Shown one piece after another: positions 5,481-9,541 of a stretch of DNA of 56,962 nt (within the stretch, counting starts at the first letter, position 1; every line of letters starts with the position of its first letter). The stretch lies in the NCBI GenBank assembly GCA_044228875.1, contig JBGAUA010000006.1, forward strand, positions 1-56,962, given 5' to 3'. This stretch comes from Anaerolineae bacterium (GTDB taxonomy: Bacteria; Chloroflexota; Anaerolineae; Epilineales; Epilineaceae). A program made the translations under genes and the position numbers. The notes under the pieces are model-generated. The model had not been told where the DNA came from. It searched no databases and saw nothing but the letters and a program-made list of their open reading frames with translations.

Positions 5481-5484
<4 letters not shown>
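4255..5484 (-). CDS. Glycosyltransferase family 4
   Basis: Starts MRLVFLG at ATG 5484, ATGA overlap with the glmS stop. GHEVTVI, KLLELLAAGMPVVASAVGQSAEVIVDGQSGRLV. Confidence 0.9.
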
Positions 5485-7331
<1,847 letters not shown>

Positions 7332-7468
7332 GGATCCCTCTCCAGTTCGTTGGCGCCGCGGACCACCGACTGTCGGCCGGCACGGCGTGGCTGGGGGCCG
7401 CCCCGCCAGACCCGTGGACGACAGGCGCCACGCGCCGCGTCGCCCCATCGATCGGGGACGGCCTTGAA

Positions 7469-7772
7469 CTGGCACCGCCGGCCTCTTGTCCCAACGGTCA
7501 CCCGCTGGTTTTGCGGTCGGCTCTGGTCTGCGCCAAGGCATCGCGCAGGGTTGGAGAGGGTCGTACCAGGGGCCGTGCCAGGCCCCGGAGGCATCCACCG
7601 ATCGATCGATCTTCACGGCGCTTGCGCCGCTTGGCCCGGAGCGTCCGGGAACCTCCACCTCGTCACCTCCCCCGCTCCGCCGACGGCCGCCACCCGCCGG
7701 AAAGATGTCGCGCCGTCTCAGGGGGGCGAGACCCCCGAAGCCGGGCGCGGCGCGCTGGGGAGACCTGGTGCT
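7469..7772 (-). ncRNA. glmS ribozyme (GlcN6P-activated self-cleaving riboswitch), expanded variant
   Basis: Minus strand, upstream of glmS: AGCACCAGGUCU, P1 (UCUCCCC/GGGGAGG), GACGAGGUGGAGGU..AUCGA..UCGGUGGAUGCCUCC, P3 GGGGCC-UGGCAC-GGCCCC with 3' GUGCCA pseudoknot partner, and P4 AAAA-CCAGCGG-GUGA-CCGUUGG-GACAA. Confidence 0.9.
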
Positions 7773-7915
7773 CGTCTGCCCTCTGTCAGGATGTGATGTG
7801 GATCGCTGGGCGGCTCCTTGGCGGCGCCGACGCATGGGCCAGTCCCTCGGCCCGGAAGAAGGAGATGATAGGGGGCGAGAACAGGGGCGGCAAGCGCTTC
7901 GCTTTGAACAGCGCG

Positions 7916-8014: not shown

Positions 8015-9541
8015 TCAGCGCCCGGAAAGGATCCAACTCGGCCCGGACGCTGCCAGCCGCAACAGCGGCACCTCGCCTCCACCGACCAGGTCCTCCAGCC
8101 ACAGTCCCGTCTCGTCCGCGCGTGCCGCAAGCGTTCCGCCGGGAGCGATGGCCCAGTCGCCGGCGGCAGTGACGGAGCGCGCCAGGGGGCGGATACGCGG
8201 CGCGCCATCCGCCCCGTTGCCCGCCCGCAGGTCGATGGCGAGCAGACGGCGACCACCGGGATCCGCGGCGGCGGTCAACACCAGCAGCCGGCCGTCGGGC
8301 CGGGCGAAGACGGTCTGGGGGCGGCTCTCAGGCGGCAGCAGCCGATCCACCTGCAGGGGATCGTCCAAGGTAAGCAGCTGCAGGCCGGCGCCCGCCAGCC
8401 ATAGCGCGGGGCGGTCCGGCAGCCAGCCGACCGCTGCGGGGATCGGCAACGGCAGGTTCAGGATCCGCGGCGGGTCGACGCTCAAGTCCATGGCCAGCAG
8501 ATGGTCCTCGTCCGGCCTCTGCGCCGCATCGGGTTCATCCGCATCATCCGCGCGAGCCGGGCCGCGGGCCAGCAGCCAGCGCCCGTCGGCCGACCAACCG
8601 AGGGGCAGACCGCGGATGCCCATGTCCCGTGGCCGGCTGTCTCCCAGGCCCAGCAGGCGCAGCCGGCCGTCGGAATAGGCCAGGCGGCGGCCGTCGCGGG
8701 ACCAGACCAGGGCCTGGGCGGGCTGGGGGTCGACGATGGCGCTGCCGCCGCCCGGCAGGCGCAGGTGCAGGCCGCGTTGGCTGCTGAAGGCCACGGCTCC
8801 GGTAGCGCCCGCCGCGTACGTGATAACCCCCAGGTCCGGCGGGCTGAGCAGCTCCATGGGGCGGCCCGAACCCGGCAGGCGCCACAGCCCCGTGGGGCTG
8901 TCGGCCAGGAAGTAGAGATCGGCGGGCAGGATGCGCGGTGCCGCGGTGGCGGCGAACCGCCCGGCCCGGCCCGGTGCTGCGGGCGTTTCCTGGGGACGGA
9001 AGGCGGCCAGGGTGCCGGCGACGGAGGTAACGGCGCGTGGCGGCGTGGCCCGCGGCGCGGCGGTAGCCAGGATGATGGTCGGCCCGTCCTGGGCCACGTC
9101 AGGCCCGGGGGTGGGGGTAGGCCCCTGGACCAGCACCTGCACGGTGTTGCTGGGCGGCAGGTCCACGGCGAGCAGCCGGACATGGGCCTCGAAGGCGCGA
9201 GCTGCTTCGTAGCGGTGATCCAGTGTGAACACCCTGGCGGTCCGCCCTTCCACGCAGCCCTCGGCCGGCGCGATCACCACCTGGCCGTCGTCGCGGCTGT
9301 CGAGCACCCAGGCCACCGTGGGGCAGTCGAAGTTCGCGGCCTCGGGCGGCAACTCTCCAAGCAACCGCGCCGTGAACCGCACCTTTAGCGGCGCCGTTCC
9401 GCGCAACGGCTCGGCGCTGAGCTCCAGCCGCAGGGCGCCGGACGGGGCACCGGCATCCGGCGCAAGATCCGCGGACAAGTCCACCGGCTGGCAAGCGGCC
9501 AGAACGATGGCTGGAAGGAGGAGCCAGAACTGAACGCGCAT
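8015..9541 (-). CDS. Putative lipoprotein with PKD-like domain and TolB-like beta-propeller
   Basis: Lipobox LAAC, GTAPLKVRF PKD-like motif, PT linker, WSRDGRRLAY and WSADGRWLL repeats. Confidence 0.7.
   Translation of the reverse strand: MRVQFWLLLPAIVLAACQPVDLSADLAPDAGAPSGALRLELSAEPLRGTAPLKVRFTARLLGELPPEAANFDCPTVAWVLDSRDDGQVVIAPAEGCVEGRTARVFTLDHRYEAARAFEAHVRLLAVDLPPSNTVQVLVQGPTPTPGPDVAQDGPTIILATAAPRATPPRAVTSVAGTLAAFRPQETPAAPGRAGRFAATAAPRILPADLYFLADSPTGLWRLPGSGRPMELLSPPDLGVITYAAGATGAVAFSSQRGLHLRLPGGGSAIVDPQPAQALVWSRDGRRLAYSDGRLRLLGLGDSRPRDMGIRGLPLGWSADGRWLLARGPARADDADEPDAAQRPDEDHLLAMDLSVDPPRILNLPLPIPAAVGWLPDRPALWLAGAGLQLLTLDDPLQVDRLLPPESRPQTVFARPDGRLLVLTAAADPGGRRLLAIDLRAGNGADGAPRIRPLARSVTAAGDWAIAPGGTLAARADETGLWLEDLVGGGEVPLLRLAASGPSWILSGR

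Follow-up and report, generated by a model that had tools for sequence, protein, structure and literature searches.

The window analysed in this study, a stretch of 56,962 nucleotides (nt) that comprises positions 1 to 56,962 of contig JBGAUA010000006.1 of an Anaerolineae bacterium (phylum Chloroflexota, family Epilineaceae), carries a complete glmS-type ribozyme of 303 nt at positions 7772-7470 of the minus strand, on which all features described here lie unless stated otherwise. The ribozyme is located in the 5′ untranslated region (UTR) of glmS, as its 3′ end at 7470 and the glmS start codon at 7331, 138 nt downstream, lie on the same strand. The linker between helices P3 and P4 of this ribozyme contains a strand complementary to the Shine-Dalgarno (SD) region of glmS, and the bases just 5′ of the predicted cut site appear to compete for the same strand. 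The overall reading that we favour, a glmS ribozyme with structural inserts and cleavage-coupled masking of the SD region, is predicted from sequence comparison and is given a probability of roughly 0.55.

Alignment of 44 leaders from related loci revealed that the conserved blocks of the glmS ribozyme, namely A/GCRCC (the slash denoting the cut), GACGAGG, GGAGG...CCUCC and AUCGA...UCGGYGGAUGCC, are all present in the window and that these columns are invariant. By homology to the A/GCRCC block, conserved in 41 of the 44 leaders, self-cleavage is predicted between A7772 and G7771 (7771-7772). The core GACGAGG (7664-7658) and the 5′ strand of P2, GGAGG (7656-7652), form one block (7652-7664), and a second one (7587-7610) comprises P2.1 (CGA-UCGA-UCG), the 3′ strand of P2.2 (GGUG, 7599-7596) and the 3′ strand of P2, GGAUGCCUCC; both assignments rest on the alignment and on a fragment match in the Rfam database. 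P2 is formed by GGAGG with CCUCC (7591-7587), and the core block AUCGAUCGAUCG is found at 7610-7599. The P3 hairpin (7569-7586) presents the loop UGGCAC (7580-7575), which is complementary to GUGCCA at 7475-7470, the 3′ strand of P3.1 and the 3′ end of the ribozyme (7470-7475). P4 and P4.1 (7477-7521), covered by an Rfam fragment of 20.9 bits, carry a GUGA tetraloop and AAAACC/GACAAGA internal loops. In an alignment of 28 sequences, P3, P4.1 and P3.1 were paired to 94.3%, 96.8% and 71.2%, respectively, with changes on both sides in 6 of the 7 pairs of P4.1 and a GC-to-CG swap of P3.1 in 7 sequences.

The initial annotation, made from the sequence of the window, had stated that all core elements are present and that a covaried P2.2 argues for a maintained glmS-ribozyme fold; each block it named was found on the minus strand, and the covariation was borne out as well. 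The 5′ strand of P2.2, GCACC (7767-7771), pairs through CACC with GGUG, and AGCACC occurs together with GGUGGAUGCC in all 15 loci of the window's family, sister families having AGCGCC with GGCGGAUGCC. Judged from these loci, CACC/GGUG versus CGCC/GGCG is a true compensatory G-C to A-U exchange. Single-sequence folding energies were no better than those of shuffled sequences in this GC-rich DNA (z = +0.91 and -0.22), and support for the fold therefore comes from comparison and not from energy. A decayed relic that has lost cleavage would agree with the score of the window, which lies under the Rfam cut-off. Against such decay, every invariant core block is intact, compensatory changes maintain P2.2, P3, P3.1 and P4.1, and a DNA search detected homologues in 26 of 41 related genomes, always upstream of the glmS start, including 14 of the 16 genomes of the window's family; we consider a relic highly improbable. 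It is nearly certain that the element is a real glmS ribozyme. Its canonical core and periphery (P1, P2, P2.1, P2.2, P3, P3.1, P4 and P4.1) is intact as read from the aligned sequences, and a working ribozyme dependent on glucosamine-6-phosphate (GlcN6P), with the predicted cut at A7772/G7771, is the best explanation.

The P3/P4 linker contains the anti-SD strand CCCUCUCCA (7552-7560), which can form nine Watson-Crick pairs with 7344-7336. These positions constitute the SD region UGGAGAGGG (7336-7344), which was identified by reading the sequence and is separated from the AUG by 4 nt. The helix with the linker is present in both the minimum-energy and the centroid structure of the local fold, and the unusual SD sequence of the window, GGAGAGGG, is exactly matched by CCCUCUCC. 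The best duplex of the SD region with the whole 5′ UTR falls on the P3/P4 linker in 20 of 33 loci, and the flanks of linker and SD region change jointly (CCCUCCUGA/UCAGGAGGG, UUCCUCCUGAGAG/UUCUCAGGAGGAA, GCUCUCCUGA/UCAGGAGAGC, UGCCCUCCCAU/AUGGGAGGGCA and UUCCCCUCC/GGAGGGGAA). In a permutation test with one representative per lineage, the own (cognate) pairing of each lineage was compared with pairings swapped between lineages (non-cognate). The summed duplex energy amounted to -503.8 for cognate versus -423.5 ± 13.1 for non-cognate pairings, with none of 20,000 permutations as good as the observed value. Using contiguous-helix scores, none of 100,000 permutations did as well, and 2 of 100,000 within the family alone; as related lineages are not independent, all permutation counts given here overstate significance and are not true probabilities, a caution that belongs with the opposing points weighed below. 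In the 28-sequence alignment the nine-pair helix is paired to 92.8%, the window and its same-genus relative L004 (loci are designated by L numbers) being two columns out of register and thus partly counted as unpaired, and changes on both sides occur in 6 of the 9 pairs; slid controls reached 33-55%. This value is on par with those of P4.1 and P3. We conclude that the pairing of linker and SD region, which is absent from the initial annotation, is very probably real.

A different complementarity was seen at L051 and L121, and also at L008, L020 and L022. At these loci the SD region is complementary to the 3′ strand of P2 and the start of P3 instead, with 17 pairs in L051 and 11 in L121. Such pairing would compete with the ribozyme fold.

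The second complementarity of the linker involves the leader 5′ of the cut site. In relatives, complementarity exists between the bases 2-12 nt 5′ of this site and the 5′ part of the P3/P4 linker, for example AGGGCAGA/UCUGCCCU, GAGCAGGC/GCCUGCUC, GGGGAUAGGA/UUCUAUCCUC, AGGGGAAGA/UCUUCCCCU and GGGAGAG/CUCUCCC, with the variants GGAGAAA/UUUCUCC, GAAGGAA/UUCCUUC and GGCAAAU/GUUUGCC in Anaerolineaceae-type leaders. At most loci this leader helix comprises 5-10 contiguous pairs and ends 2-7 nt before the cut site. The corresponding strand of the window, AGAGGG (7779-7784, i.e. -13 to -8), was identified by direct reading, covariation of the helix being seen in relatives; it is complementary to CCCUCU of the linker and mimics the SD sequence. 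As RNAduplex proved too noisy for leader pairing over long windows, contiguous-helix scoring was used instead. Cognate leader pairing exceeded non-cognate pairing in all but 12 of 100,000 permutations, and when only the part of the linker upstream of the SD site was considered, 11 of 100,000 permutations did as well. The leader and SD sites on the linker overlap by 1-7 nt in all 28 loci (by 3-7 nt in 27 of them), and the two helices therefore cannot both form fully. Covariation extends to all three strands, CUGCCC occurring with GGGCAG and GGAGGG, and CUGCUC with GAGCAG and GGAGAGC. These comparisons suggest that leader pairing is probably real in the lineage.

Both complementarities could in principle be by-products of base composition, with a purine-rich SD region and leader facing a pyrimidine tract that resembles the tail of 16S rRNA. 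Indeed, non-cognate scores are already high (mean 18.2 versus 22.9 for the SD region and 15.1 versus 17.8 for the leader). However, flanking and internal bases change together on both sides, and neither permutations nor slid controls attain the observed values, so that we regard this explanation as very unlikely.

From these three strands we derived a possible mechanism. Before cleavage, the leader strand would compete for the anti-SD strand, so that some mRNAs keep the ribosome site open. At high GlcN6P, self-cleavage would turn the leader into a separate small fragment that is free to leave, and the anti-SD strand could then close on the SD region of glmS. The resulting mRNA, with a 5′-OH end and devoid of protecting initiating ribosomes, would be left to ribonuclease J (RNase J), which is encoded in the genome of the window (563 bits versus a cut-off of 400). 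Cleavage-coupled masking of the SD region as such is a tentative proposal, somewhat less probable than its absence. With slightly more reserve still, we suggest for this Anaerolineae-type lineage a natural translational switch operated by cleavage, in which the GlcN6P-triggered cut would detach an anti-anti-SD strand located just 5′ of the scissile bond, the P3/P4 strand would mask the SD region, and translation would be shut directly and the mRNA deprived of protecting ribosomes before RNase J acts.

Several observations weigh against cleavage-coupled masking. Specific pairing of the SD region with the linker was not found in the distant lineages L020, L021, L051, L111, L121, L160 and L161, and leaders of the Chloroflexia type have a short classical P3/P4 linker devoid of an anti-SD strand. 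In the window itself, the leader helix comprises only 6 pairs (AGAGGG/CCCUCU, 7784-7779 with 7560-7555) located wholly inside the SD site; its energy of -8.6 kcal/mol compares with -16.4 kcal/mol for the SD helix, and by cognate score it comes last of 17. When the test was confined to the family, 754 of 100,000 permutations did as well as the observed leader pairing. Nested folding of 20 uncleaved leaders gave probabilities of at least 0.75 for the SD helix in 13 of them and of no more than 0.45 for the leader helix; on removal of the leader, a clear rise of the SD helix was confined to L018, L104 and L004. In the full-length fold of the window, the SD helix had a probability of only 0.05. The nested partition-function model ignores pseudoknots and tertiary structure and is thus a weak test of a switch; its results, in which most leaders show no shift on cleavage, do not support one. 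As to transcription, four studies provided RNA-library contigs that extend over the UTR. The predicted cut site is spanned by one contig of 507 nt (7302-7808) and one of 151 nt (7696-7846); being contigs, they indicate neither ends nor strand nor cleavage.

The main rival is an ordinary glmS ribozyme whose sole output is decay by RNase J, with the linker-SD helix acting as a constitutive damper of translation or as a long-range clamp that stabilises the P3-P4 domain, the leader helix being architecture beside the cut site, and neither helix depending on cleavage. It is consistent with the SD helix being predicted in both uncleaved and cleaved RNA at most loci, with the presence of RNase J in the genome and with leader helices that also occur in leaders lacking SD pairing. 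On the other hand, a permanent helix of 8-13 pairs (-13 to -21 kcal/mol) over the ribosome site of an essential gene of cell-wall precursor synthesis needs a route of opening, and the overlap of leader and SD sites in all 28 loci has the layout of a strand-exchange switch. We regard a constitutive mask or clamp as rather unlikely, and cleavage-coupled masking as the preferred reading.

The other structural departure of the ribozyme is a 40-nt segment (7650-7611) that exactly fills the interval from GGAGGU to AUCGA and forms two hairpins. Its position and the first hairpin, CCCGGA-CGC-UCCGGG (hairpin A, 7635-7649), agree with the initial annotation; the second one (hairpin B, 7615-7630) is formed by 6 pairs and a CAAG tetraloop, GCGGCG-CAAG-CGCCGU, rather than by 7 pairs and an AA loop. 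Both were assigned by folding and comparison. Read between GGAGGUU and the P2.1 strand, 43 of 44 distinct Chloroflexota leaders share the same layout: hairpin A is followed by 4 nt of linker, most often CUAA, then by a second hairpin or branched domain of highly variable size, and finally by GAA. Hairpin B ranges from absent in L013, which has hairpin A only, to a branched domain of about 80 nt. Sequences from outside the window's family have a hairpin A of 7 pairs capped by a GNRA-like tetraloop; in that family, 5-6 pairs enclose a loop of 3-5 nt and the tetraloop is lost. RNAalifold returned no structure for hairpin A from 29 distinct sequences, the shorter hairpin of the family being misaligned, and pairs were therefore counted on the 21 non-family sequences, leaving out the 8 rows of the family. 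All 7 pairs then showed changes on both sides and 96.6% of cells were paired, a value reached by none of 500 shuffles, with slid controls at 38-53%. The comparison thus argues strongly for the insert being conserved, lineage-wide structural periphery.

The initial annotation had also proposed a structural subclass, which might respond differently to the ligand or receive an additional input. That the insertion marks a special subclass peculiar to this RNA is not supported, as the two-hairpin module recurs across the phylum. A second sensor or a protein-binding site in the inserted hairpins would explain why hairpin A and its short flanking A-rich linkers are conserved and why the GNRA-like tetraloop of hairpin A has been retained in most lineages. 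However, no support for an extra input was found in these comparisons: only helices are conserved, the tetraloop has disappeared from the window's family, and a GNRA loop fits a tertiary contact. The strong variability of hairpin B is better suited to structural periphery and disfavours a second aptamer, making a second sensor very improbable. In the catalytic core, the stretch joining P2 to P2.1 can accommodate additions that range from a single small hairpin to structures of over 100 nt.

P1 forms an expanded, branched domain of 102 nt (7665-7766) in the minimum-energy fold, as had been claimed. It measures 64-167 nt in the window's family versus 26-36 nt at most sister-family loci (118 nt in L026). 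Its 3′ branch contains a hairpin (7700-7680) that is conserved in the family, with a covarying stem and a 7-nt loop GURGCGR (GUGGCGG in the window); this hairpin may be a tertiary-contact element replacing the lost tetraloop of hairpin A. A further hairpin had been placed between P3 and P4. It exists in the local fold at 7528-7548, more precisely between the pyrimidine tract of the anti-SD strand and P4, and was seen only in the window and L004.

The expected poor performance of covariance models was confirmed, as the whole window contains no match at the Rfam gathering score. A relaxed search returned two fragments of RF00234, one of 20.9 bits (model positions 112-156, P4/P4.1) and one of 11.3 bits (49-88, P2-P2.1) carrying a 42-nt insertion, compared to a gathering score of 37 bits. 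The model has 167 consensus positions, compared to the 303 nt of the RNA, which the initial annotation had put at about twice the usual length. The shortfall of the window is due to insertions and not to missing features. Full-length matches (model 1-167) at or above the cut-off were obtained for 9 of 20 insert-bearing relatives, in which the insert appears as a 50-78-nt insertion; such commonness is what the initial annotation itself had named as speaking against novelty of the insertion. L064, L079 and L173 also pass the cut-off. In the window's family just 1 of 8 other loci reaches it, and it is the combination of insert, P1 of 64-167 nt, changed P2.2 pair and extra linker sequence that makes this family hard for Rfam. 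As, besides the window, 7 of 8 further family loci tested are missed by the standard model, surveys of the distribution of glmS ribozymes in Chloroflexota are undercounts.

The glmS coding sequence (5481-7331) encodes 616 amino acids starting with MCGIVGY, as judged from its translation and from homologues with the same start downstream of the 44 related leaders. It is separated by an intergenic gap of 683 nt from an open reading frame (ORF) of 508 amino acids (8015-9541), the gap extending from the stop codon at 8015 to the glmS start at 7331. An ORF beginning with an ATG at 7835 stays open in frame across the entire ribozyme into glmS (5481-7835). It was rejected as a true gene, as GlmS needs a cysteine at its N-terminus and all 44 homologous loci begin with MCGI; in GlmS, an Ntn amidotransferase, this cysteine becomes the first residue after removal of methionine. 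The extension is an artefact of GC-rich DNA, and a gene caller could annotate a false N-terminal extension of 168 amino acids that hides the leader. A consensus scan revealed a promoter-like site (7865-7893; -35 TTGCCG, 17-nt spacer, -10 TATCAT), one site versus 0.1 expected, which weakly suggests a transcript start near 7858 and about 85 nt of leader ahead of the predicted cut. A match to the Guanidine-II riboswitch on the plus strand (7410-7466, 17.8 bits versus a cut-off of 32 in Rfam) was treated as chance.

The leader also contains an SD-like AAGGAG 5′ of the cut site (7814-7819), found by reading the sequence. Similar elements, often GGAGGUGAU, occur in the leaders of L018, L024, L026, L027, L108, L142 and L163-L171, 20-60 nt 5′ of the cut site and close to the likely 5′ end, and GGAG or GGAGG was noticed by eye, uncounted, in many related leaders. 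They resemble the known 5′ stabiliser elements that bind ribosomes, and cleavage would detach them.

The distance from GACGAGG to GGAUGCC amounts to 48-129 nt in the homologues from the DNA search, compared to about 30 nt in classical ribozymes. A scan of named public contigs with a 17-base pattern gave mostly chance hits among the at least 120 matches listed, of which 4 of 120 passed a strict filter. On inspection, 14 of 18 loci were real leaders, and a looser filter contributed L121 as well. Leaders of the same layout came from contigs under the labels Anaerolineae, Anaerolineales, Bellilinea, Promineifilaceae, Roseiflexaceae and Chloroflexia; the Anaerolineales leader L112 does not differ from that of the same-order locus L026. 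These relatives place the organism of the window in Chloroflexota, probably in the class Anaerolineae. Across the phylum, a strict core pattern matched 18 of 401 sampled genomes from at least 8 families. One genome of this sample harbours two insert-bearing copies of the core on different contigs (G294:C139:8156-8243 and G294:C157:7793-7871). The stretch carrying the ribozyme was also found in public DNA runs of sludge and bioreactor metagenomes.

Genomes of the Anaerolineaceae type additionally contain two-hairpin glmS-type ribozymes that precede a gene for glutamine synthetase or an ORF with a glutamate-synthase domain rather than glmS. The loci concerned are L042, L059, L064, L153 (G273:C4), L155 (G214:C3), L156 (G265:C5), L079 and L154 (G416:C13). 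The domains Gln-synt_N and Gln-synt_C were confirmed by Pfam downstream of L042, L064 and L153; glutamine synthetase was assigned by a similar N-terminus for L059 and L155 and by a near-identical core only for L156, and the ORF with the glutamate-synthase domain follows the ribozyme of L154. Full-length Rfam glmS matches reached 43.8 bits for L042, 43.2 for L064 and 45.5 for L079. The same genomes encode glmS elsewhere, with a ribozyme match at two of three such loci (L173, 38.9 bits; L176, 27.7 bits, below the cut-off of 37; none at L175). Just before the ribosome site, the leaders of L153, L154, L155, L059, L064 and L079 show, by eye, a terminator-like GC-rich hairpin with a U tract. In leaders of this glnA/gltB type, the P3/P4 linker UCCCUUCC has its complement in an element further downstream, GGAAGGGC, and not in the SD region. 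Immediately upstream of the glnA-type ribozyme leader, L155 and L156 have a 6S RNA gene (1270-1445; 66 bits, Rfam cut-off 46.4). No paper describing glmS ribozymes upstream of glnA was found in a literature search.

In comparison with the classical glmS ribozyme (RF00234) of Bacillus subtilis, B. anthracis and Thermoanaerobacter tengcongensis, the ribozyme of the window shares the location in the glmS 5′ UTR, the A/GCRCC and GACGAGG core blocks, the P2/P2.1/P2.2 double pseudoknot, P3/P3.1, and P4/P4.1 with a GNRA loop. It differs by its length of 303 versus about 170 nt, the 40-nt module between P2 and P2.1, the branched 102-nt P1, an A-U instead of a G-C pair in P2.2, predicted pairing of the bases 5′ of the cut site and a score below the Rfam gathering score. 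With the genus-specific hairpin counted in, its P3/P4 linker (7568-7522) has about 47 nt, compared to about 4 nt in classical ribozymes, and carries the anti-SD strand. Other Chloroflexota ribozymes, on contigs labelled Anaerolineae, Roseiflexaceae and Chloroflexia, have the same two-hairpin module; in the window's family, hairpin A is shorter and lacks the tetraloop, P1 is much larger, and P2.2 has the A-U pair. Extra stems in the core are tolerated by other natural glmS ribozymes as well, as McCown, Roth and Breaker (2011, RNA 17:728) reportedly described additional stems of the catalytic core in variants of Deinococcus-Thermus. For the output of the classical ribozyme, passages in PMC11476745 and PMC6765202 describe degradation of the 5′-OH RNA by RNase J; by analogy, 5′-OH RNA as a substrate of RNase J would also be expected from the ribozyme of the window.

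Translational riboswitch platforms built of SD, anti-SD and anti-anti-SD strands likewise have three mutually exclusive, covarying strands. The proposed trigger of the present element differs, as it would be an irreversible strand scission that detaches the competitor and not a ligand-induced refolding. Engineered ribozyme switches usually free the SD sequence on cleavage, and the direction predicted for the window is masking after cleavage. In artificial SD switches based on twister or hammerhead ribozymes (for example PMC5052635), self-cleavage likewise changes the strand pairing with the SD sequence; those constructs are synthetic, the element of the window is natural. A literature search, outside whose reach McCown et al. 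2011 lies, found no paper on SD pairing by glmS ribozymes, on a competitor at the cut site or on Chloroflexi-type inserts.

To our knowledge, no natural RNA other than the glmS ribozyme combines the functions of riboswitch and ribozyme, and the route from cutting to repression has been worked out only in Bacillus, via RNase J1. Passages in PMC11476745 and PMC9495366 discuss this ribozyme as an antibacterial target. What appears to be new here is the anti-SD strand inside the ribozyme together with its competitor at the cut site, and the comparison points to a second, translational output that may be built into the ribozyme itself.

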